Source of the DNA: an uncultured Bacteroidota bacterium | Lineage (GTDB): Bacteria; Bacteroidota; Bacteroidia; 2-12-FULL-35-15 | DNA length: 64,000 nucleotides | Direction: 5' to 3' | Assembly: GCA_903847205.1 (NCBI GenBank) | Contig: CAINDA010000028.1 | Span: forward strand, 4,603-68,602 | Shown here: positions 16,124 through 64,000 of the stretch, piece after piece | Layout of the letters: every line of letters starts with the position of its first letter | How positions within the stretch are numbered: position 1 is the stretch's first letter | Made by a program: the position numbers and the translations under genes | The notes under the pieces: generated by a model | Seen by the model: only the letters and a program-made list of their open reading frames with translations | Told to the model about the DNA's origin: nothing | Databases searched by the model: none

Positions 16124-16867
16124 TTAACGGGCGTATCTTTTAATCAATTCCGACAATTCTGTTTTTACACTTCTGGAAACAGGAATGTCGCAGTCGTCAA
16201 TCATTTCAATAATACCGCTGTCTTTTGCGGGGCTGAATTTTTTAATATATTCCAGATTTATAAGATGAGAATTATGGCAGCGGAAAAAACTTTCGCCTTC
16301 TAAAGAAGCTTCAAGAGATTTTAAATTTTTAGTGACAAGCCGTATTTTATTATCAATGGTATATACCTTTGAATAACTTCCGTATGCTTCTATCCGGATG
16401 ATGTCTTTAATATTAATATACTCCGAACCATTAGTGGTAGGCAGTGTAAGCTTGCCCGATAATGCAGTTTTTAATTTTTCAGTCTGTACCTGAGGAATAC
16501 CCTGCTTCCCAATTTTTTCAGAAATGCGGCTTACAGCATTTATCAGCTCAATGATATTAATAGGTTTTAATAAATAATCAGCTGCGCTTACCTTAAAAGC
16601 TTTAATGGCAAATTGATTATAAGCTGTAACAAATACCACTTCAAATCTTCTGTTTTCGAACTGTTCTACCAGTTCCAATCCTGTCATCTGAGGCATTTCT
16701 ATATCCACAAAAACCAAGTCAGGATTTTTATTTTGAATTTCTTTAATTCCGTCTTTGGCTGAGAGTGCCGTACCAATTATTTCTACTTCTGGGCAGAATT
16801 CTTTCACAGCTATTTCTAAGGCAGTTACAGCATTCTTTTCGTCATCAATTATTACGGCTTTAATCAT
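16124..16867 (-). CDS. LytTR-family response regulator (CheY receiver + LytTR DNA-binding domain)
   Basis: DDE..D receiver motifs (IIDDE, VFVDIEMP, KP) and a C-terminal LytTR-like region. Sits next to a sensor kinase. Confidence 0.85.
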   Translation of the reverse strand: MIKAVIIDDEKNAVTALEIAVKEFCPEVEIIGTALSAKDGIKEIQNKNPDLVFVDIEMPQMTGLELVEQFENRRFEVVFVTAYNQFAIKAFKVSAADYLLKPINIIELINAVSRISEKIGKQGIPQVQTEKLKTALSGKLTLPTTNGSEYINIKDIIRIEAYGSYSKVYTIDNKIRLVTKNLKSLEASLEGESFFRCHNSHLINLEYIKKFSPAKDSGIIEMIDDCDIPVSRSVKTELSELIKRYAR

Positions 16868-30095: not shown

Positions 30096-31376
30096 TTATT
30101 TAAAGAGCGCATTGATATGATTGCGCAGGAGTTTTTGTTCTGTTTTCGACTGAGTTAATTTCAACGCAAGTTCAAAATTTCTTTTGGCTTCCTCCGTCTG
30201 GTTCAGTTTTAACGAGATTTCGCCGAGCAGGCTGTAATATAAATAATATGATTCTAATTTTTGTCTGCCTTGTACTGCCTCTAATTCAGTTTGTGCAGCA
30301 ACTGCGCCGTTCAGCTGCAGCACGGCAACAATACGGTTTAATTCTGTAACAGGCGATGGCGAAATCCGCTGCAGCCATTCATAATATCCAAGAATATTTT
30401 TCCAATTTGTTTTTTCAAAACTTTGCGCTGTGCAGTGTTCAAAAGCGATTGCAGCTTCTAAGTGATAACTGCTGATGGTACTGCCGAAAGCCGCTTTGTT
30501 CATATATGAATTTCCTTCGCTTATTAAAACTTTGTTCCATTTGCTGCGGTCCTGTAAAGGAAGTAAAATTATTTCTCCTTCAGAGCTGAGGCGGCTGCCG
30601 CTTCTGGAAGAATGAAAACACATCAGTGCAAGCAGTGCATATACTTCAGGTAACTGCGTGTACTCGTTTTCTGCGAGGAGCCTGCAAAGGGTGACAGCCT
30701 CTTCAATTATATCATTTCTAATTAAATTTTCGGAATGAGTTGAATTATATCCTTCGTTAAAAATGAGGTAAATGCTGTTTAATACACTATTAATCCTATT
30801 ATTTATTTCATCCTTGCTGGGGATTACCAGCCTGATTTTATTCTGTCTGAAAAACTCTCTTGTTCTGTAAAGCCTCTTAGAAACGGTATCTTCAGAGGTA
30901 AGGAAGGCTTTAGCAATTTCGCTGGTGCTGAAACCGCAGAGTGTTTTAAGAATAAGGGTGATTTGATTTTCTTCAGAAATATCAGGATGGCAGCAGGCGA
31001 ACATCATTCTTAACTGATCATCTTTTATTAAATGTTCTTCAAACAATTGATTAAAGGTTGTTTCAACGGTGTAACCCGAAGCAAGCAAAAAGTGAGTTTC
31101 GCTGTCGCCGAATGAAATACTGCTTTTTTGTTTTTTGATTAAGTTGAGGGCTTTATTTTTTGCAGCGATAAACAGCCATGCTTCCGGCTTTGCGGGGATG
31201 CCTTTTAATTTCCAGTGCTCAAGAGCAGAAATCAACACATCCTGAACTACATCTTCGGCGAGCTCAATATTATGAGAACCGAATATGCGTGTAAGCACAG
31301 AAACCATCTTTCCCGCCTGGTGACGGAAAAGATGGTTAACAGTGCTTTCTACAATTTGATCAGAGGAACTTGACAT
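30096..31376 (-). CDS. Sigma-70/ECF-type RNA polymerase sigma factor with a long C-terminal (DUF6596-like, TPR-like) extension
   Basis: Region 2 (VQDVLISALEHW) and region 4 HTH (CGFSTSEIAKAFLTSEDTVSKRLYRTR), followed by a ~230-aa helical domain. This type often neighbours YciI-like genes. Confidence 0.75.
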   Translation of the reverse strand: MSSSSDQIVESTVNHLFRHQAGKMVSVLTRIFGSHNIELAEDVVQDVLISALEHWKLKGIPAKPEAWLFIAAKNKALNLIKKQKSSISFGDSETHFLLASGYTVETTFNQLFEEHLIKDDQLRMMFACCHPDISEENQITLILKTLCGFSTSEIAKAFLTSEDTVSKRLYRTREFFRQNKIRLVIPSKDEINNRINSVLNSIYLIFNEGYNSTHSENLIRNDIIEEAVTLCRLLAENEYTQLPEVYALLALMCFHSSRSGSRLSSEGEIILLPLQDRSKWNKVLISEGNSYMNKAAFGSTISSYHLEAAIAFEHCTAQSFEKTNWKNILGYYEWLQRISPSPVTELNRIVAVLQLNGAVAAQTELEAVQGRQKLESYYLYYSLLGEISLKLNQTEEAKRNFELALKLTQSKTEQKLLRNHINALFK

Positions 31377-34108: not shown

Positions 34109-34453
34109 TTATTTACCGTACATCTTTTTTCGGTGCTGGATACCCCAGTCCTTTAGGGCATCAATTACTTTTTCAAGTGACTCTGCGTAAGGTGTAAGAA
34201 CGTACTCAATGGTTACCGGCAGCGAATCATAAACAGTCCTTTTGACCAGCAGGTTAATTTCGAGCTCTTTTAATTCTTTTGACAGCATTCTTGAGGTGAT
34301 TTTCGGGATTTGTCTTTCTATTTCCTTAAATCTTGTATTGCCGGCCGACATAGCAATAATTATCTGGAGTTTCCATTTGCCGTTTATTACATCAAGCGCA
34401 TCTCTTATAGGTAAAAGAGATTTAAGGCAGGCAGTATGATTTTTATTTTCCAT
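34109..34453 (-). CDS. HxlR-family winged-helix transcriptional regulator
   Basis: 114 aa. C..L..I.GKWK..I (HxlR signature). Divergent from a DsbA-like gene, which is a common pairing. Confidence 0.8.
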   Translation of the reverse strand: MENKNHTACLKSLLPIRDALDVINGKWKLQIIIAMSAGNTRFKEIERQIPKITSRMLSKELKELEINLLVKRTVYDSLPVTIEYVLTPYAESLEKVIDALKDWGIQHRKKMYGK

Positions 34454-37538: not shown

Positions 37539-38576
37539 TTGAATATGAATAAAAAACAAATTATAACCGCCATTATTCACATACTTGTGTGGGCTCTTTT
37601 TTTGTCTATTCCTATTTTGTTTTTCAGTAATCCGCAGGGTGAACACGCTCCTCCCTTTCATAAAGATTTTTTCGGGCTAACAGAAATTATTTCATATTTA
37701 ACCTTTATAGGATTTTTTTATCTGAATGCTTATGTTCTTATTCCGGTTCTTTTATCGAAGAAAAAAACTATCGTTTATATTGCAACAGTAGTAGTTTTAA
37801 TTATCCTGATTGCTTCTGTTAATGCGGCAGTGAGTGATTTTTACAAGCCTCATCTGCATCCCAGAACTTTTATGCGGTTATTTGGTTTTAAATTATTTCC
37901 CTGCATTTTTAATTTCGCTATCAGCACAAGTTATAGAATTATTATAGATAATGTTGAAGCAGCAAAAACCAGAAAAGAAAAAGAGAATGAAAATTTAAAA
38001 AGCGAACTTTCTTTTTTACGGTCGCAGGTGAGCCCGCATTTTATGTTTAATGTTTTAAACAATATGGTGGCTCTTGCCCGAAAAAAATCGGATCGTTTGG
38101 AGCCGGCTTTAATTGAGCTGTCTAATTTAATGAGATATATGTTATATGAATCCGGTGAAGAAAAAGTAAGCGTCAATAAGGAAATTGAATATCTTAAAAG
38201 TTATATTGATTTGCAGATGCTGCGTTTTGGCGATGATGTTAAAGTTAATTTTGATGCAGTCCGTAAAACGGATACAGATAATTTTATTGAACCTATGCTG
38301 TTTATCCCTTTGGTTGAAAATGCTTTTAAGCATGGAATGGGCTTAGTAGAGAATCCTGAAATAAACATACAGCTGATCATAAATGAAGAGTCTATTTTTA
38401 TCCGCGTTATAAATAAATTCAACAGCCGTGAAACTTCAGGCAAAACTGGTAATTCAGGTATTGGACTGAGTAATTTAGAACGTCGTTTGAATTTGTTGTA
38501 TCCCGGTAAATATGAGCTCAAACTCTCAAATGAGAATAATCAATTTATCGCCGCTTTAAACTTAAATTTGAAATGA
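37539..38576 (+). CDS. LytS/YpdA-type membrane sensor histidine kinase
   Basis: Four N-terminal TM helices, then SPHFMFNVLNNMVALARK (His_kinase H-box) and NAFKHG..GIGLSN ATPase motifs. Stop overlaps the regulator start. Confidence 0.8.
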   Translation: MNMNKKQIITAIIHILVWALFLSIPILFFSNPQGEHAPPFHKDFFGLTEIISYLTFIGFFYLNAYVLIPVLLSKKKTIVYIATVVVLIILIASVNAAVSDFYKPHLHPRTFMRLFGFKLFPCIFNFAISTSYRIIIDNVEAAKTRKEKENENLKSELSFLRSQVSPHFMFNVLNNMVALARKKSDRLEPALIELSNLMRYMLYESGEEKVSVNKEIEYLKSYIDLQMLRFGDDVKVNFDAVRKTDTDNFIEPMLFIPLVENAFKHGMGLVENPEINIQLIINEESIFIRVINKFNSRETSGKTGNSGIGLSNLERRLNLLYPGKYELKLSNENNQFIAALNLNLK

Positions 38577-39289
38577 TGCGCTGCCTGGCAATAGATGATG
38601 AAACACTTGCGCTGGATCTGCTTGAAGATAATATCAGGCAGATTCCCTTTTTGCATCTGGTAAAGCGCTGCAAGAATGCTTATGAAGCAATTGAAGTATT
38701 ACAAAAGGAAGAAATTGATTTAATATTTTTGGATATTCAGATGCCCGGAATTACCGGCCTGCAGTTTCTGAAAAGCTTGAAGTCGCCTCCGATGGTGATT
38801 TTTATTACTGCCTATAAAGAACATGCACTTGAAAGTTTTAATTTGGATGTGCTGGATTACCTTGTTAAACCGGTTTCTTTTGAACGTTTTTTGAAAGCAT
38901 CAAATAAAGCTTTGGATTATTATAATTTGAAACAAAAGCTGGTACACACATCGTCGCCAGCTGCTGATTTTATATTTGTAAACGCTGAATATAGTCTTGT
39001 GAAAATTACAATTGCAGACATATCTTATGTAGAAGGATTAAAAGATTATATTAAAATTCACCTTGTAAATGCTGTAAAACCGGTTATTACGAGGATGAGT
39101 TTAAAAGGTATTGAGGAAAAACTGCCATTCGGGAAATTTTTTAGGATACATAAATCGTTTATTATTTCAATTGATAAAATTACTTCCATCCGAAAAAACC
39201 GGCTTTTTATAAAAGAGACAGAACTGCCTCTGAGCGATCTTTACAAAGATAATTTGTATAAAATTATAAGCCCAGAAAATATAATATAA
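38573..39289 (+). CDS. LytTR-family response regulator
   Basis: Receiver motifs (AIDDE, DLIFLDIQMP, KP) and a C-terminal LytTR domain. Overlaps the kinase stop by 4 nt. Confidence 0.85.
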   Translation: MMRCLAIDDETLALDLLEDNIRQIPFLHLVKRCKNAYEAIEVLQKEEIDLIFLDIQMPGITGLQFLKSLKSPPMVIFITAYKEHALESFNLDVLDYLVKPVSFERFLKASNKALDYYNLKQKLVHTSSPAADFIFVNAEYSLVKITIADISYVEGLKDYIKIHLVNAVKPVITRMSLKGIEEKLPFGKFFRIHKSFIISIDKITSIRKNRLFIKETELPLSDLYKDNLYKIISPENII

Positions 39290-53850: not shown

Positions 53851-54948
53851 ATGAAAACAAATCAAATTCAGGAATTTTACCAGCTGCTTAAAAGCGACAA
53901 TCTTTCATTTATATATCAAGGTGATTTTAGCGACGGTATTACCGACAAAATAATTGCCCTGAGCGAATACAGTCTTGAAGACAAACATGAAATGGGAGAA
54001 ATAAGGAGAAAAGTTTCTTTTGTTATTATAGAGTGTTTTCAAAACATTGTAAGACATGGAAATGACGCCCGGAATAAATCCAACAGAACAGTAACATCTC
54101 CAGGCCTATTTTCTACTAGAAATACGAAAGACTGTATTTATATTGCTTCGGCTAATTTGATTGAAAAAGAAAATGTTGCTCAACTGACGGAAAAACTCGA
54201 AAGCCTGAACAAATTGAATAAAGAACAAAAGAAAGATCTGCATATTGATATTTTGAAAAATGGCAAACTTTCGGATAAAGGCGGTGCTGGCCTTGGATTT
54301 ATTGAGATGGCAAGAAAATCTGAGAACCCGCTGGAATTTACTTTTGAGAATGAGAATGATAAACTTTCGTTATTTTACCTGATGTTGAAAATGCATAGTA
54401 AAGGTGTGGTAAGCGAAAAATACGTTTCGATGCAAAGCGTAATTGAATCGTACGATTTAATGCGGAAAGAAAATATATTAATGATTTACAAAGGGGATTT
54501 TTCGCAGGAAACTGTTATTCCTATGCTTAAAATGGTTGAACATAATTTAAACAAGCATAAAGAAGGGCTTCATTTTACAAAGAAAATAGTGCTGGTGCTT
54601 ATTGAAATGCTGCAAAATATATCGAAACATGCTATTGAACTGAATGGTAAAAGAGATTCGATATTTATGATTGGTAAAAACAACAATAAATACATTATTT
54701 GTACCGGCAATATGGTTGACTCTGCTTCTTCAGAAAAATTAAAAACTAAAATAGATGCAGTTAACAATTTGAACCCGGAAGACTTGGTTGTTTTATACAA
54801 GAAGAAATTGAAAGAAAACGCATCCACTGAAAGGGGAGCCGGGCTGGGGATAATAGATATTGCCAGAGAAAGCACTGAAAAAATAGTATTCGATTTACAG
54901 CCGGTAGAAGGCGGGTTGCAATTTTTTTCATTATGTGTTCAAATATGA
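53851..54948 (+). CDS. Protein made of two tandem SiaB/RsbW-like GHKL ATPase (anti-sigma-factor-type Ser kinase-like) halves
   Basis: Each ~180-aa half has I(Y/K)GDFS, an N-box-like E.FQNIVRHG / EMLQNISKHA, and a G2-box GGAGLGFIEMARKS / ERGAGLGIIDIARES. Confidence 0.5.
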   Translation: MKTNQIQEFYQLLKSDNLSFIYQGDFSDGITDKIIALSEYSLEDKHEMGEIRRKVSFVIIECFQNIVRHGNDARNKSNRTVTSPGLFSTRNTKDCIYIASANLIEKENVAQLTEKLESLNKLNKEQKKDLHIDILKNGKLSDKGGAGLGFIEMARKSENPLEFTFENENDKLSLFYLMLKMHSKGVVSEKYVSMQSVIESYDLMRKENILMIYKGDFSQETVIPMLKMVEHNLNKHKEGLHFTKKIVLVLIEMLQNISKHAIELNGKRDSIFMIGKNNNKYIICTGNMVDSASSEKLKTKIDAVNNLNPEDLVVLYKKKLKENASTERGAGLGIIDIARESTEKIVFDLQPVEGGLQFFSLCVQI

Positions 54949-57063: not shown

Positions 57064-57585
57064 TTAATTAAGCCTATCATACTTTCTTTTATATTCGTTG
57101 ATAACCTCTCCCTTTTTTGCTTCTAAAGTTCTTTCTAATTGTAATAACTTTACCAACTCTTCATCAGAAAAATTTGTGGATCTATGATCTGATCGATTTA
57201 TTCCAATTAATTCTAAAATTTCACTTTCATACTTAAGCTGTTTATAGCCATATCTTTTATTATATCTAAATATCATAATCACATATAGCTTGTCTTCGAT
57301 CGGTTTAATTGTTTTTTTTAACTCCAGTTTCCAATCATTTTTCAAAAAACTATTCATTTTATATTTTTTATCGACCAATTTCCTCGCACTATTTATTAGG
57401 TCAGGCAAGTCTTCGGGTGAACTGATTGTTTGCCCCCATTTATTTTTTATATTCATACCAGTTGCCCATGAACTAAGCATATAAACTCCTCCACCTATAA
57501 TGAGTATAAAAATTAAAATTAAAATCCCTTCCATACGAATTTGAGTTTTGTTTCTGATCGATTTACATCGGCGGCAATTTTTCAA
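57064..57585 (-). CDS. Hypothetical single-pass membrane protein. A 173-aa ORF; the likely start is Met17 at ~57537.
   Basis: A TM helix ILILIFILIIGGGVYMLSSW followed by a charged K/E-rich soluble domain. Very AT-rich. Overlaps or abuts the upstream HEPN-like gene. Confidence 0.4.
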   Translation of the reverse strand: MKNCRRCKSIRNKTQIRMEGILILIFILIIGGGVYMLSSWATGMNIKNKWGQTISSPEDLPDLINSARKLVDKKYKMNSFLKNDWKLELKKTIKPIEDKLYVIMIFRYNKRYGYKQLKYESEILELIGINRSDHRSTNFSDEELVKLLQLERTLEAKKGEVINEYKRKYDRLN

Positions 57586-58024
57586 AAAATTCCTTCACTA
57601 AATAGCGAAGGATTGGTGTAGTTATTGAAAGTATTTCTTTATCTCTCTTAGAATTTAAGCCCTTATTTCCATGAAATAGATTACATCTTACTTGATATAA
57701 ACACCACATTACAGTTGATAAATCTACAACTTCAATTTTTACTTGATTATTCTTTTTGGGGCGCTCGTCTTTTATTGATTTTAAAGATAAAATTTTATCA
57801 AACTCATTTTTATATTGTTTATAAACCCGATTAAAAATTTCTTTTGTATCCGAATCTTGAATAATCATTTTTATGGCGGTTCTTTCGGTTTCAGTTGTAA
57901 CTGCGACATAATAGCAATTAAAGGCTATCCAATAACAAATAAATTTATTTACATCTTCTTGTTCATTTTCGCCTTTTTTAATCCAATCATTCATTATTCC
58001 ACAAGTAATTTCTGCTGATGCCAT
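57563..58024 (-). CDS. Hypothetical protein with a HEPN-like Rx4HG motif (153 aa)
   Basis: QVRCNLFHGNKG at residues ~111-122 fits the HEPN Rx4-6H catalytic motif. The rest is predicted all-alpha. No closer family call is possible. Confidence 0.35.
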   Translation of the reverse strand: MASAEITCGIMNDWIKKGENEQEDVNKFICYWIAFNCYYVAVTTETERTAIKMIIQDSDTKEIFNRVYKQYKNEFDKILSLKSIKDERPKKNNQVKIEVVDLSTVMWCLYQVRCNLFHGNKGLNSKRDKEILSITTPILRYLVKEFFEKLPPM

Positions 58025-58072
58025 AGAATTTATTTTAGTCCGTTTTAATTAATTCTAAACAGTGTGATAATC

Positions 58073-58276
58073 TTAAAGGTTCGGTTCTTCCAAAAAATTT
58101 TTATCAAGGTTATTACATAAGCATAGAATGGGACTTCCATTTTCATTCAAGGAAGGGCCAAATTTAAAGTATTGCTGTCCTTCTTTGATTACAACATCTA
58201 TTATTTGATAAATATTATTATCATTAGAATTTCTACGCGTATATTTCTTTCCTTTTTTTTTCTTATTTTCTTTCAT
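58073..58276 (-). CDS. Small basic hypothetical protein (67 aa)
   Basis: Lys/Arg-rich N-terminus (MKENKKKKGKKYTRR). First gene downstream of a -7-like promoter box. ORF only. Confidence 0.3.
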   Translation of the reverse strand: MKENKKKKGKKYTRRNSNDNNIYQIIDVVIKEGQQYFKFGPSLNENGSPILCLCNNLDKNFLEEPNL

Positions 58277-58328
58277 TAGTTGAATAATTTATGATGTTGT
58301 ATATTTTATATAACTATATGTTTAAAGA

Positions 58329-58336
58329 CAAATATA
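58329..58336 (-). promoter_or_regulatory. Candidate -7 promoter box TAtaTTTG for the 67aa / HEPN-like / TM operon
   Basis: Reverse complement of caaatata matches the Bacteroidota TAnnTTTG consensus ~53 nt upstream of the start codon. Confidence 0.3.
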
Positions 58337-58343
58337 TCCAAAT

Positions 58344-58374
58344 AAAAAAGACGAAGCCCCCGGCTTCGTCTTTT
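58344..58374. terminator. Bidirectional rho-independent terminator ending the 58395..59048 gene
   Basis: A6 - gacgaagcc (58350-58358) - ccc - ggcttcgtc (58362-58370) - tttt. A 9-bp perfect stem. Confidence 0.65.
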
Positions 58375-58394
58375 AAAGTTTTATAAAAACATAA

Positions 58395-59048
58395 TTAATT
58401 CTGTACAAATACCGAACGTGTAATACTTGCCGGGCCGGTACCTGCGGCGTTATGAGCAAATACTTTAATATTTATTCCGGCGCCAAGAGGGAGGCCGCTT
58501 AAAGTTTCGTGTGAAGTAGCATTTGCAATAAAACTTATAGGTGCGGCACCTGCAGCAATATTTATCTGTTTATTGTTGCTTAATGTAACTGCAGCTTCGG
58601 CACCCACAAAAGCAATAATGCTGTATTTTTCAACACCTGCCATTGGTATTATCTGCACAACTATATTACCGTTTTTAGAAGTTAAATCTTTTATAACAGC
58701 CTGTCCGGGTAAAACAGAAGGTGTGCGTTCAGTGGCAGTGTTTTCGAAACCTGCACTGTGAATTTTAGCAACATCTTCACCGCAGTTTAATGTTACATAT
58801 TCGCCTACCTCAGTAAGCATAGTGCATGAATCGATTAAAGTACTATCATACACATCTTTATCAGCTTTTCTGTTGTTATAGGCATTTAAGCATACAACGC
58901 CTTGAGCTGTTATAGCAGCCGGTGTATGAGGCGGGTTAGGATAAGCGGCATTGTTAAGCATTTCGGTGCCCACGTTTGAGAGGATGCCTGCTGTTATAAG
59001 GCCGTTTTTTCTTGTCCAAGTATCTTTAACTTTTGGTTTTAGTGACAT
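58395..59048 (-). CDS. Hypothetical protein with a C-terminal fibronectin-type-III-like domain and no signal peptide
   Basis: The C-terminus ..GAGINIKVFAHNAAGTGPASITRSVFV resembles FN3 F-G strands. The N-terminal ~110 aa are unassigned. The gene is monocistronic, with its own terminator. Confidence 0.45.
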   Translation of the reverse strand: MSLKPKVKDTWTRKNGLITAGILSNVGTEMLNNAAYPNPPHTPAAITAQGVVCLNAYNNRKADKDVYDSTLIDSCTMLTEVGEYVTLNCGEDVAKIHSAGFENTATERTPSVLPGQAVIKDLTSKNGNIVVQIIPMAGVEKYSIIAFVGAEAAVTLSNNKQINIAAGAAPISFIANATSHETLSGLPLGAGINIKVFAHNAAGTGPASITRSVFVQN

Positions 59049-59177
59049 ATTTCTTTTGTTAAATGTTTTCGAAACAAAGAAAAAGAGTCCCTGAAATTTA
59101 TTTTATGATACTGCTCATAATCATTTCTGCTTTTTCGCAAGTTTTAAAATAGAGAATAAATTTTTTGGCAGCGAGCA

Positions 59178-59199
59178 TTTTTGGCAGTTTCTGCCAAAA
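59178..59199. promoter_or_regulatory. Operator-like palindrome ttttggcag-ttt-ctgccaaaa, with a partial upstream direct copy
   Basis: 9-bp arms (59179-59187 / 59191-59199). ttttttggcagcgagc precedes it at 59161-59176. Confidence 0.4.
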
Positions 59200-59226
59200 T
59201 AAATTCTGAACAAGGCTGTAAAAACA

Positions 59227-59406
59227 TTATCATAGCTATGATAATGTTTATCATAGGTATGATAGAAGTTATCATAGCTATGATAAACTCTTTCAAAGGT
59301 ATGATAGAAGTTATCATAGCTATGATAACGTTTATCAAAGGTATGATAGCTGTTATCATAGCTATGATAAACTCTTTCAAAGGTATGATAGACTTTATCA
59401 TAGCTT
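59227..59406. repeat. Phased tandem array of 8.5 x 21-bp palindromic units (42-bp higher-order period)
   Basis: The perfect 18-bp palindrome TTATCATAGCTATGATAA occurs at 59227, 59269, 59311, 59353 and 59395 (truncated). It alternates with TTTATCATAGGTATGATAG-like half-degenerate units at +21. Confidence 0.9.
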
Positions 59407-59425
59407 GTTTAAACATCCTGCAAGA

Positions 59426-59607
59426 CCTCACCCCCGGCCCCTCTCCTTGAAAAAGGAGAGGGGAGCCATAATTTTAAGAATTTGAATGGATACAGAATAG
59501 AACCCCTCTCCTTTTTCAAGGAGAGGGGCAGGGGTGAGGTGAATGAGTGTTTTGGTTTATGTGATAGAACCCCTCTCCTTTTTCAAGGAGAGGGGCAGGG
59601 GTGAGGT
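59426..59607. repeat. Three REP-like hairpin elements (copy 1 inverted relative to copies 2 and 3)
   Basis: cctcacccc.gcccctctcctt-GAAA-aaggagagggg has an 11-bp stem and a GNRA loop. Copy 1 is at 59426-59466; reverse-complement copies are at 59499-59541 and 59567-59607. Confidence 0.85.
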
Positions 59608-59694
59608 AAATTAATAATTGCTCGTCTTGTATAAAAGAATTAAATTGCAGTGCAAATCGAAAGAATTATAAATTAATTTCTAATCTATCACGAT

Positions 59695-61425
59695 ATGAAA
59701 AAACATATACTCTTATCAGCTTTAGCATTTTTAACTTTTATAACTATTGAATGCCATGCACAGCTGCCAACCGGCAGTATAGCTCCCGATTGGACTTTTA
59801 CTGACATAAACGGTGTAAGTCATCATTTGTATGCCGATTTAGATGCAGGTAAAACTGTTTATCTTGATTTATCAACTACATGGTGTGCCGGATGCTGGGA
59901 TTGGCATACGAGCGGTTATATTGAAACACTCTGGCAGAATCACGGCCCTATTGGTCAGCCAGGGGTTAGCCCGAGTTCAACAAATGATATTCTTTTTTAT
60001 CTGATGGAATGCGACGGCTCAAATAATTATGCCTGCCTTATAGGCGATAATGTTAATTGTACAAATGTTTACAATGAAGCAAGCATGGGCAATTGGGTTA
60101 CAGGAACCAATTATCCGATAATTGATCCGCCGTCGCCTGCCATTGATGTATTCAATACTAATTACCAGAGCGGCAGTTACCCTACAATTTTTGTGATTTG
60201 TCCCGACCGCTCCTTAACAAACTATTGGAATAATGCTCCGCCGGATATGTATCAGGCTGCAACCTGCGCCACTGCTTCAGCAGGAGCCGATGCCCGTATG
60301 AGAGTAATGGATTTATTTCCGCCCCTGCTCGAATCCTGCGACAGCGTTATACCGGCATTTCATATTTCAAATAATGGAAGCAGTACGTTAACCTCGGCCA
60401 ATATTGCCTTTAAAGTGGATGGTATAACTCAAAAAAATTATCATTGGACAGGCAGCCTTCCCACTTATCACGATGCATTAATCAGCGGCATCAAAGTAGG
60501 TTCATCAGTGCCGGGCCATCATACTGCTTCAGTTGTAGTTTCCAGCCCCAACGGACTCACTGACCCTACACCATCAAACAATACTGCAGCACTGTCATTT
60601 AATATTTATCCTTCCGTTGGCCCGCTGGTTTCAGAATCATTCGAAGCTTCCGGAATACCATCTTCCTGGACTATCGGCAATGGCGGACATGCGCCAACCT
60701 GGACAACAGGTTCTGTAGGCTATAATTCTTCGAAATCTGCTTTTTTAAATTGGAACGACAGCATTCCTGATATGTATGAAGTAGATTTGTTTAATATTAA
60801 AGCGCAGTCGTTTGCCAATGCAGGTTCTGCTTCATTAACGTTTGATGTTGCTTATTGCGAAAGCTTTTATCAATATAATCTTGCAGAATTAGATGTTGAA
60901 ATTTCTACCGACTGCGGTATTACATGGCTATCAAAATATGCGAAAATCGGCAATGCTTTGGCCACAAAGCCCTATAGCAACAACCCTTTTGTCCCTGCAT
61001 CTGCAGCAGATTGGAGACATGAAACAGTAAATTTAACATCCGCTGCCGGGCAGTCGCATGTGTTAATTCGCTTTAAAGCAACTTCAGCTAACGGCAATAA
61101 TTTATATATCGATAATATTAATGTAACCGCTGCAGTTACCACAGGCATTGAAGAAGCAGGAAGGATTAATACAATAAATGTTTATCCTAATCCGATAACA
61201 AATAATGCAACTATTGATTTTAACTTAGTTAAAGATGCTGATAATGTATCAATTTTGCTGGTGAATGAACTTGGCCAGGAAGTATTAAATAAAAATCTCG
61301 GGCATTTAAGTTCAGGAGAACAAAATTATAATCTTAATGTTTCCGCATTAAATAATGGATTGTATTTATTGAAAATTAAAACCGGCGAAAATATAATCAC
61401 CAAAAAAGTATTTATAGATAAATAA
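59695..61425 (+). CDS. T9SS-secreted protein with an N-terminal thioredoxin-fold (CxxC) domain and a C-terminal Por secretion tail
   Basis: Signal peptide. DWTFTDINGVSHHLYADLDAGKTVYLDLSTTWCAGCW is a redoxin-like motif. C-terminal VYPNP..N.ATIDF......V.I.LVN.LGQEV......GLYLLKIKTG is a T9SS CTD. Confidence 0.7.
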   Translation: MKKHILLSALAFLTFITIECHAQLPTGSIAPDWTFTDINGVSHHLYADLDAGKTVYLDLSTTWCAGCWDWHTSGYIETLWQNHGPIGQPGVSPSSTNDILFYLMECDGSNNYACLIGDNVNCTNVYNEASMGNWVTGTNYPIIDPPSPAIDVFNTNYQSGSYPTIFVICPDRSLTNYWNNAPPDMYQAATCATASAGADARMRVMDLFPPLLESCDSVIPAFHISNNGSSTLTSANIAFKVDGITQKNYHWTGSLPTYHDALISGIKVGSSVPGHHTASVVVSSPNGLTDPTPSNNTAALSFNIYPSVGPLVSESFEASGIPSSWTIGNGGHAPTWTTGSVGYNSSKSAFLNWNDSIPDMYEVDLFNIKAQSFANAGSASLTFDVAYCESFYQYNLAELDVEISTDCGITWLSKYAKIGNALATKPYSNNPFVPASAADWRHETVNLTSAAGQSHVLIRFKATSANGNNLYIDNINVTAAVTTGIEEAGRINTINVYPNPITNNATIDFNLVKDADNVSILLVNELGQEVLNKNLGHLSSGEQNYNLNVSALNNGLYLLKIKTGENIITKKVFIDK

Positions 61426-61698: not shown

Positions 61699-63345
<1,647 letters not shown>

Positions 63346-63512
63346 TTATTTATTGATTAATTATTTGTTTGTTGTTTTTTGTTTAGTCCCCCTTGTGGGT
63401 TTTAGCTTGTGTGATAGAGAAAGGGGGAGCGCTGGCTCTGTGTGCTGCAGGGGGATGTTACCCGCTTCGCTTTTCTCCATTTCTCCAACTCTCTAATTCT
63501 CTATTTCCCTAA

Positions 63513-63815
63513 TTATACTATCGCGAAAATATCAGTCTCGCGCATAATCAAATAATCTTTGCCTTCAATTTGTACTTCAGTACCGGCATATTTTCCGTAC
63601 AATACGGTATCGCCAACTTTCACTGCTGGTTTGTTGCCTTTTTCATCAATATCGCTTACTGCAATAACTTTTCCTCTTTGAGGTTTTTCTTTTGCAGTAT
63701 CAGGAATAATAATTCCTCCTTTTGTTTTTTCTTCAGCTGCAGCAGCTTCAACTACTACTCTGTTTTGAGTACCTGCAACAGGCTCAATGTTTACTTTTGT
63801 GTGTGCTTTTGCCAT
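63513..63815 (-). CDS. groS: Co-chaperonin GroES
   Basis: 100 aa. [14 protein letters not shown] mobile loop and [16 protein letters not shown]. Confidence 0.9.
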
Positions 63816-63960
63816 TTTTATTTATTGTTTTAAAGGTTAATTAGTTTATAGTCCCGCATGTGCGGGATTTAAATGCTCCCGACTTTGTCAGTTATTATGC
63901 CAAAGCAGGTATTCATAGTTATAAAGGACAATTTTGCAGTTCAACGGTTAATTGCAATAA

Positions 63961-63995
63961 AAAATGTCAGACTTTGGTGACAGTCTGACATTTTA
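63961..63995. repeat. Perfect 13-bp inverted repeat aaaatgtcagact-ttggtga-cagtctgacatttt at the window edge
   Basis: Read directly from the sequence. It may be a terminator or operator for a gene beyond the window. Confidence 0.5.
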
Positions 63996-64000
63996 AATAT

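Follow-up and report, generated by a model that had tools for sequence, protein, structure and literature searches.

What purpose could be served by a stack of regularly spaced palindromes between two divergent genes of a bacterial chromosome? The question is raised by positions 59227 to 59405 of a 64,000-nucleotide stretch of contig CAINDA010000028.1 from an uncultured Bacteroidota bacterium (the window, by which we mean this whole stretch), where a first-pass annotation, made from the sequence alone, had described an array of phased 21-bp repeats and likened it to a plasmid centromere or an iteron origin, orphaned from any partner and pointing to a remnant or cis-site of a mobile element. 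Our analysis leads to a different answer. Together with the adjacent gene, which encodes a protein of ~220 amino acids (aa), the array makes up a two-part module that is conserved in Bacteroidota and apparently undescribed; neither the literature nor any family library yielded an account of arrays of this kind or of the protein family. The association between array and gene family is conserved, and both the core of the repeated boxes and their phase are under selection.

The repeat structure itself was confirmed by reading the sequence and with Tandem Repeats Finder, which reported a period of 21 bp (8.5 copies) and higher-order periods of 42 bp (4.3 copies, 86% matches) and 84 bp (2.1 copies, 93% matches). 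A perfect 18-bp palindrome (A box; four full copies and a truncated one, as first described) alternates with a degenerate B box placed exactly 21 bp past each A box, and dyad centers recur every 10.5 bp. With up to 3 mismatches allowed, the 16-mer core matched nine sites in the window, eight of them within the array, against a mean of 0.42 matches in shuffled controls, none of which reached nine. The boxes, and the two open reading frames (ORFs) that run across them, are the following.

59227 to 59244: A box 1, perfect 18-bp palindrome TTATCATAGCTATGATAA
59248 to 59265: B box 1, TTATCATAGGTATGATAG, an imperfect palindrome
59269 to 59286: A box 2, same sequence as A box 1
59290 to 59307: B box 2, CTTTCAAAGGTATGATAG; read on the minus strand, TACCTTTG
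59311 to 59328: A box 3, same sequence as A box 1
59332 to 59349: B box 3, TTATCAAAGGTATGATAG; read on the minus strand, TACCTTTG
59353 to 59370: A box 4, same sequence as A box 1
59374 to 59391: B box 4, CTTTCAAAGGTATGATAG; read on the minus strand, TACCTTTG
59395 to 59405: truncated fifth A box, TTATCATAGCT
59181 to 59450, plus strand: spurious 89-aa ORF over the array, called as a gene in the corresponding ENA contig
59144 to 59431, minus strand: spurious 95-aa ORF over the array

The array is noncoding. Both ORFs do stay open across it, and a gene caller took the 89-aa one, which might suggest a repeat protein with heptad repeats (IIAMI...) on either strand; however, no homologue of the translation was found at an E value of ≤10 among 5.8 billion proteins, and equivalent arrays at other loci have unrelated sequences and are likewise stop-free in several frames on both strands (in four frames at one locus, L058, to which we return below). 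Both strands owe their openness solely to the palindromic nature of the unit and to its length, 21 being a multiple of 3. We thus consider the probability of a coding function to be practically nil, in agreement with the first-pass annotation, which had called these frames artifacts.

On its minus-strand side, the array faces the gene that we regard as its partner; the region between this gene and its divergent neighbor spans 646 bp.

58395 to 59048, minus strand: partner gene, encoding a 217-aa protein
59049 to 59226, minus strand: 178-bp leader, from the array to the start codon of the 217-aa gene
59695 to 61425, plus strand: gene on the opposite side of the array, encoding a 576-aa protein sorted by the type IX secretion system (T9SS; Por_Secre_tail)

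A word-indexed search with the 217-aa protein returned only the protein itself and one 88%-identical protein (P0002), which is encoded in a different genomic context, with a 100-aa ORF upstream. With HMMER, 80 matches were obtained among 1.84 billion cluster representatives; about 60 of these are full length (~216 to 230 aa, 25 to 35% identity) and can be aligned end to end. At all six family loci with enough flanking sequence (the window, L248, L250, L241, L245, and L247, with 25 to 35% protein identity to the window), a period-21 array of quasi-palindromic boxes lies 160 to 330 bp upstream of the gene, while L252, with a flank of only 127 bp, was uninformative. No other period-21 array of at least 4 copies was present in ~100 kb of control DNA. 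The array, conserved as it is beside the genes of this family, is therefore not orphaned. (The assignment of the loci to Bacteroidota is deduced from T9SS and SusC-like hallmarks.)

The architecture of these arrays is shared, the sequence of their boxes is not. In L248 (35% identity), the array has periods of 42 bp (4.9 copies) and 84 bp (2.5 copies), ends 160 bp before the ATG, and consists of a palindromic A box, AAAAGGTTACCCAACCTTTTT, alternating with a degenerate B box; this is the architecture of the window, in a completely different sequence. In L250 (29% identity, on a 1.63-Mb contig), the array of 12 units, whose core is GAAAnGnGCnCTTTTC, stops ~175 bp short of the ATG, and the more distant L241/L242, L245/L246, and L247 (25 to 28% identity to the window protein) have 13 to 20 units. 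Box sequences are locus specific, being related at 67 to 85% protein identity and unrelated between distant proteins. As a side observation, the array region of L241 (1385 to 1804) forms one large inverted structure on the 21-bp frame, in which CAACCATAC-type units are followed by palindromic CAACTAGTCTAGTTG units and then by the first type in reverse.

The clearest view of what has been maintained comes from L245, where 13 consecutive units follow one another in an exact 21-bp register, with zero indels. Its core, AAGTRTAYACTT, reaches ~2 bits at 6 of 12 positions and 1.0 to 1.6 bits at the others, whereas the 5 to 6 spacer columns carry ~0 to 0.2 bits; L250 repeats this pattern of conserved core and variable spacer. 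With conserved cores, randomized spacers, and an exact register, the L245 pattern indicates that the duplications are old and that selection acts on both the core and the phase. Within a single array (L245 and L247), asymmetric cores are found in either orientation, which is what recognition of duplex DNA with two-fold symmetry would predict. In the window, the 42-bp unit has eight variable columns, none of which lies in the 18-bp A palindrome (P = 0.006) or in the right half of the B box. The idea, already put forward in the first-pass annotation, that the array presents phased sites to a dimeric DNA-binding protein is thus supported by the homologous loci, with their conserved cores and 21-bp register and their randomized spacers.

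Could such arrays nevertheless be neutral minisatellites, or promoter-like boxes amplified into stacks, in either case lacking a specific role in binding? The 84-bp units of the window are 93% identical, a sign of recent amplification, and three of its B boxes, read on the minus (gene) strand as TACCTTTG, match the Bacteroidetes -7 consensus TAnnTTTG perfectly, an event to which we assign a chance of ~5% per unit by our own estimate. However, neutral repeats would hardly be expected to show a conserved tie to one gene family, a strict register, and conserved cores beside randomized spacers, and the -7-like boxes are not common to the arrays of other loci. Moreover, across samples, the arrays are identical or 1 base apart, with unchanged copy number; this constancy also means that they are not hypervariable contingency repeats. 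We consider a neutral origin highly improbable.

Little can be learned about the partner protein from known families: the 217-aa protein had no match in Pfam, NCBIfam, PHROG, or PADLOC, and a profile of its N-terminal domain found nothing in PDB or Pfam. Its structure model (predicted local distance difference test score [pLDDT], 93.5) comprises an N-terminal arm, three long helices, and a C-terminal Fn3 domain, and differs from ribbon-helix-helix (RHH), ParB, and winged-helix Rep folds. Visual inspection of the sequence revealed no signal peptide. In the family alignment, no conserved catalytic-type residues were seen; there is a conserved basic cluster (R60, K61, and K64, plus K8).

On these grounds, we tentatively favor a reading whose probability falls just short of an even chance: the array would be a series of phased binding sites, cooperatively coated by a dimeric protein that is probably the product of the adjacent gene. 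The array would form the cis-acting half of the module, with 8 to 20 quasi-palindromic boxes in a strict 21-bp register (two helical turns), and the other half would be the ~220-aa protein, with its orphan three-helix N-domain and Fn3 domain, usually encoded 160 to 330 bp downstream of the array. Dimers of a sequence-specific protein would sit on each box, and the adjacent gene's product is the likeliest candidate because it is the sole component that travels with the array and diverges with the box sequence. The two-turn spacing would align the dimers on one helical face and so favor cooperative binding, and the resulting extended nucleoprotein complex would be built upstream of the 217-aa gene's own promoter, where it would autoregulate this gene and possibly the divergent neighbor, or else serve as a mark on the locus, as centromeres and iteron arrays do.

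The position of the presumed promoter fits this picture. Candidate -7 boxes lie ~45 to 55 nucleotides upstream of family ATGs, so that the arrays would be upstream of likely promoters; beyond AT-rich words, the leaders have no conserved motif in common. In the window, the leader holds the following elements.

59093 to 59100, minus strand: candidate -7 box TAAATTTC, 7 of 8 positions matching TAnnTTTG, ~45 to 52 nucleotides before the ATG (a consensus match only)
59179 to 59200: small hairpin, TTTTGGCAG-TTT-CTGCCAAAA

Ahead of this hairpin runs a direct repeat of TTTTTGGCAG (59162 to 59171 and 59178 to 59187). We also tried to read TTTGGCA motifs in the leaders as sigma-54 promoters; on inspection, the GG-to-GC spacing was off by 2 bp in each locus, and this candidate was rejected.

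Several observations speak against DNA binding by the adjacent gene's product. The three-helix N-domain resembles no known DNA-binding fold, all fold matches being to the Fn3 domain, which is a domain typically seen in extracellular or phage-structural proteins. Isoelectric points range from 5.5 to 9.8 across the family (median, 9.0), with the window protein near neutral. Only about seven loci were inspected, three of which are close relatives of each other. One array, that of L058, is probably transcribed, to judge by its position, and mismatches compatible with G-U pairing outnumber A-C mismatches on the gene strand (45:22), a weak hint of RNA pairing for which base composition may account. 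That a protein binds the array, which protein this would be, and what its binding would achieve are all inferred.

The L058 locus deserves closer attention. It was fetched only for the presence of a loose pattern, TATGATA-N14 repeated three times, and yet it encodes a distant homologue of the N-domain (E value of 1.5e-3 among ~4,450 ORFs) in which the SGGF motif is conserved. Here, an 11.4-unit 21-bp array of ATACCTG-N4-CAGGTAT boxes is located directly 3' of the gene, between the stop codon and a terminator-like hairpin. This arrangement shows that adjacency matters and position does not, which suits a cis-acting DNA site better than a promoter operator. A leader motif, AATACTAACCAACAACG, occurs twice in L058 (4536 to 4556 and 5715 to 5738), before the homologue and before the large gene downstream of the array, which suggests a shared promoter or 5' untranslated region element.

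The same L058 arrangement is also what one would expect if the module acted at the RNA level, with the array transcribed into a multihairpin repeat RNA that is bound or processed by the adjacent protein, by analogy with type III toxin-antitoxin (TA) systems, in which a repeat RNA neutralizes the protein, or with an RNA scaffold. As RNA, each A box of the window would form a stem of 7 bp closed by an AGCU loop, while for L248 the stem would be 8 bp long and the loop ACCC. Type III TA systems include ToxIN (5.5 36-nucleotide repeats, a terminator, and then toxN) as well as CptIN and TenpIN, and the layouts are alike: a tandem array of a ~36- to 45-nucleotide unit in 2 to 5.5 copies (here, the 42-nucleotide higher-order unit at 4.3 to 4.9 copies) stands beside a single small protein gene, with locus-specific repeats, as a self-contained two-component module among TA and defense genes (MNT/HepT and a DzbB-like HEPN protein in the window, DUF4258/DUF2283 in L245, and PemK in L250). 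The excess of G-U-compatible mismatches would fit as well, as would the strong folding of the RNA (z = -11.6 and -12.3), although palindromes in an array will always fold strongly. The differences, however, are substantial. The protein is unlike ToxN, CptN, and TenpN (no Pfam or PADLOC match and a three-helix-plus-Fn3 fold), and no endoribonuclease of the ToxN/AbiQ family was found. The base period is 21 nucleotides, with palindromic units, and cores flip within an array, which alters an RNA but not a symmetric DNA site; the spacers are random, yet the register is exactly two helical turns. Between array and gene there is not a terminator but a 160- to 330-bp leader with its own candidate promoter: a terminator scan of the window leader found none, only the weak 59179 to 59200 hairpin, which lacks a U-tract, and sequence inspection found none in the leaders of the other loci. 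Altogether, we regard an RNA-level function as unlikely.

If DNA is bound, the binder might instead be a regulator encoded elsewhere, with the array serving as an operator or upstream activating array that controls the Fn3 gene, the divergent neighbor, or both. Regulators are at hand: the first-pass annotation had seen no obvious one in the window, but four are encoded there.

16124 to 16867: LytTR response regulator
30096 to 31376: extracytoplasmic function (ECF)-type sigma factor
34109 to 34453: HxlR-type regulator
38573 to 39289: LytTR response regulator

The two LytTR proteins are of particular relevance in this respect. LytTR sites consist of 9-bp repeats with 12-bp spacers, i.e., a 21-bp period, and Bacteroidota are rich in LytTR response regulators; G(C/G)TATGATA is repeated at 21-bp intervals in the window, and the array lies upstream of a gene, inside a divergent intergenic region. 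While the spacing fits, comparison by inspection with the LytTR consensus ([TA][AC][CA]GTTN[AG][TG]) revealed no GTT core in the boxes, which are palindromic where LytTR sites are direct repeats. Furthermore, boxes differ completely between loci, including two from one sample (the window contig and L244 both derive from metagenome sample ERZ27313292), so that each locus would need a separate regulator, none of which is conserved nearby. An array of 8 to 20 sites also far exceeds an ordinary operator, and in L058 it lies 3' of the gene. Control by an external regulator is, in our view, about as unlikely as a function at the RNA level.

Two specific operators were considered and rejected. Spacer-centered dyads (TGATAA-N3-TTATCA) match a Fur-box array (TGATAAT-N-ATTATCA) at 10 to 13 of 14 specified positions; however, these Fur-like dyads lie over the most variable columns, whereas the conserved dyad is the unit center, which rules out the Fur reading. 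The NrtR operator, a 21-bp palindrome, has a conserved GT-N7-AC core (PMC2330246), and this core is absent from the boxes.

How, then, does the module relate to the plasmid elements that the array first brought to mind? In partition centromeres, such as sopC of F (12 units of 43 bp that all contain an inverted repeat, located downstream of sopB), parC of R1 (10 repeats of 11 bp), and parC of pSK41 (4 repeats of 20 bp), phased tandem repeats likewise adjoin a small gene, upstream or downstream of it, and the sequence of the repeat is system specific; as in those systems, each unit here contains an inverted repeat, and cooperative binding along one face would be expected. The resemblance to iterons is comparable. 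Those of R6K and pPS10 measure 22 bp, and the lambda origin has four dyad-symmetric 19-bp iterons bound by O dimers; here, too, the period is ~21 to 22 bp, with a conserved core, a variable spacer, and a fixed register (L245, L250, and the window), and the array adjoins a ~220-aa gene with which its sequence codiverges, its units being palindromic as in lambda. Iterons are direct repeats of 17 to 22 bp, a range that includes the 21-bp units here, which are quasi-palindromic and occur in both orientations.

A partition centromere of the sopC or parC type, or an iteron origin, left behind by a mobile element would account for the phased repeats with an inverted repeat in each unit, for their locus-specific sequences, and for the variable island in which they lie (the 88%-identical homologue has a different context, and TA genes are adjacent). 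However, the machinery that such elements require is missing. No partition NTPase (ParA, ParM, or TubZ) was found among the window ORFs or in the Pfam tables of the neighborhoods, nor were ParB, ParR, Rep, an integrase, or a relaxase found in the window or the inspected homologous neighborhoods; Pfam scans of ~50 window ORFs, in line with the reported lack of parAB and rep genes, detected no ParA, ParB, Rep, integrase, or transposase. The neighbor protein is neither RHH nor ParB/helix-turn-helix, and its three-helix-plus-Fn3 fold is not that of a winged-helix Rep or of lambda O, with no match to a Rep family. Of the features of an iteron origin, neither DnaA boxes (none in 58000 to 60500, with up to 1 mismatch) nor an AT-rich unwinding element nor a helicase loader was seen, and there was no other sign of a replicon; the window also shows no GC-skew switch.

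The setting argues in the same direction. The window is an ordinary Bacteroidota chromosome, with a paa operon, groESL, T9SS cargo, and housekeeping genes (Pfam, ~50 ORFs), and the module is chromosomal. Among 72,556 plasmid and 50,697 phage records, the protein family had no match, and a BLAST search with the array, a check suggested by the first-pass annotation, gave short chance matches only. That array and intact gene have been kept together across deep divergence further argues against decay. We therefore abandon the interpretations as a remnant of a mobile element and as a plasmid centromere or iteron origin, which we judge to be very unlikely.

Searches for the box sequence itself outside the family gave little. 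A degenerate two-unit pattern had 0 matches in IMG/VR, in 185,579 species-representative genomes, and in JGI metagenomes, and the 16-mer and 18-mer palindromes were found elsewhere only as single matches at about the chance rate. The exception is L209 (metagenome contig OLNY01011516.1, 365 to 420), the only further site with more than a single 18-mer: ATTTATCATAGCTATGATAAATAT is present there as two tandem 24-bp copies, beside several TATCA...TGATA palindromes, upstream of an unknown gene, which, in this low-GC organism, looks like an unrelated operator cluster. The loose TATGATA pattern retrieved more than 120 mostly unrelated 21-bp arrays from bacteria and archaea, of which only L058 proved relevant; the others were checked for family homologues only. 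These arrays (L004 to L155) include those of Borreliella lp17 plasmids, where 7 to 14 copies immediately precede a gene; others resemble iterons and are carried by small plasmids of Desulfurella and Helicobacter, and in Flavobacterium and Thermophagus there are arrays that contain palindromes.

Between the array and the T9SS gene, i.e., on the side away from the 217-aa gene, lies a further set of repeats.

59425 to 59611: three GC-rich hairpins, resembling repetitive extragenic palindromic (REP) elements, CCCCTCTCCTT-N4-AAGGAGAGGGG with extended arms

The arms read GGGGTGAGG, one of the three copies is inverted, and none occurs elsewhere in the 64-kb window. Logan contig L003 ends inside the third copy, and, since this contig breaks there, the hairpin element may well recur elsewhere in the genome in a REP-like manner. 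The probable role of the hairpins is that of an insulator or terminator, and the arrays of L250 and L058 are also flanked by a strong hairpin of a comparable kind.

Past the 217-aa gene, small unknown genes are followed by a DzbB-like HEPN protein and an MNT/HepT type VII TA pair. The DzbB-like protein (153 aa; 57563 to 58024, minus strand) matches the C-terminal part of Dazbog DzbB only weakly (PADLOC; E value of 1.5e-5), and the gene that separates it from the MNT/HepT pair encodes a 173-aa protein without a family match; these genes together are a small defense/TA islet. A gene next to the island (53851 to 54948) encodes a protein in which the SiaB-family kinase domain (DUF6272) is present twice. 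On the other side, a gene for a T9SS-sorted (Por_Secre_tail) protein neighbors the module in three contexts, namely, the window (59695 to 61425), L245 (386 to 1342), and P0002, a recurrence that could be due to chance, given the abundance of T9SS cargo genes in Bacteroidota. No tRNA genes are present in the window, and a search with Rfam 15 gave no match at the gathering score, only spurious, subthreshold microRNA hairpin models.

One remark concerns the contig itself. Over the array region, the window is identical to a metagenome contig from ENA (k141_120166), with which it agrees from 53695 to ~62175 before diverging (~72% identity) inside groEL. From 62153 to 64000 (the 5' part of groEL plus groES), it is 100% identical to another contig family (L237/L238), in which DM13/ligA lies downstream of groEL. 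The contig from which the window was taken was thus probably joined chimerically within groEL, or else recombined there.

Returning to the reading that we favor, in which the boxes are coated by dimers of a cognate protein, the type of array, a phased series of cognate sites, is known; what is new is the partner protein, the stand-alone setting on a chromosome, and the lack of any NTPase or replicase. There is a real, if clearly less than even, chance that these loci represent a new class of self-contained module in Bacteroidota, a locus-specific phased array with a cognate three-helix/Fn3 binder that needs neither NTPase nor replicase; such a module could be a new kind of nucleoprotein switch or chromosomal centromere-like mark or, should the array act as RNA, a new TA-like or defense module of variable islands. 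On a practical note, such arrays are currently given hypothetical protein annotations by gene callers and often become contig breakpoints during assembly. Should the array be bound by the protein encoded next to it, the three-helix-plus-Fn3 family would add a new architecture to those known for sequence-specific nucleic acid binding, and the loci would offer a natural series of cognate sites, with a different box at each locus on a common 21-bp frame, which would make the recognition code directly testable. It would also follow that cooperative arrays of the iteron or centromere kind are not confined to plasmids and phages but can stand alone as chromosomal modules; the recurrence of the module beside TA, defense, and T9SS cargo genes points to a possible role in genetic conflict or in the regulation of surface proteins.

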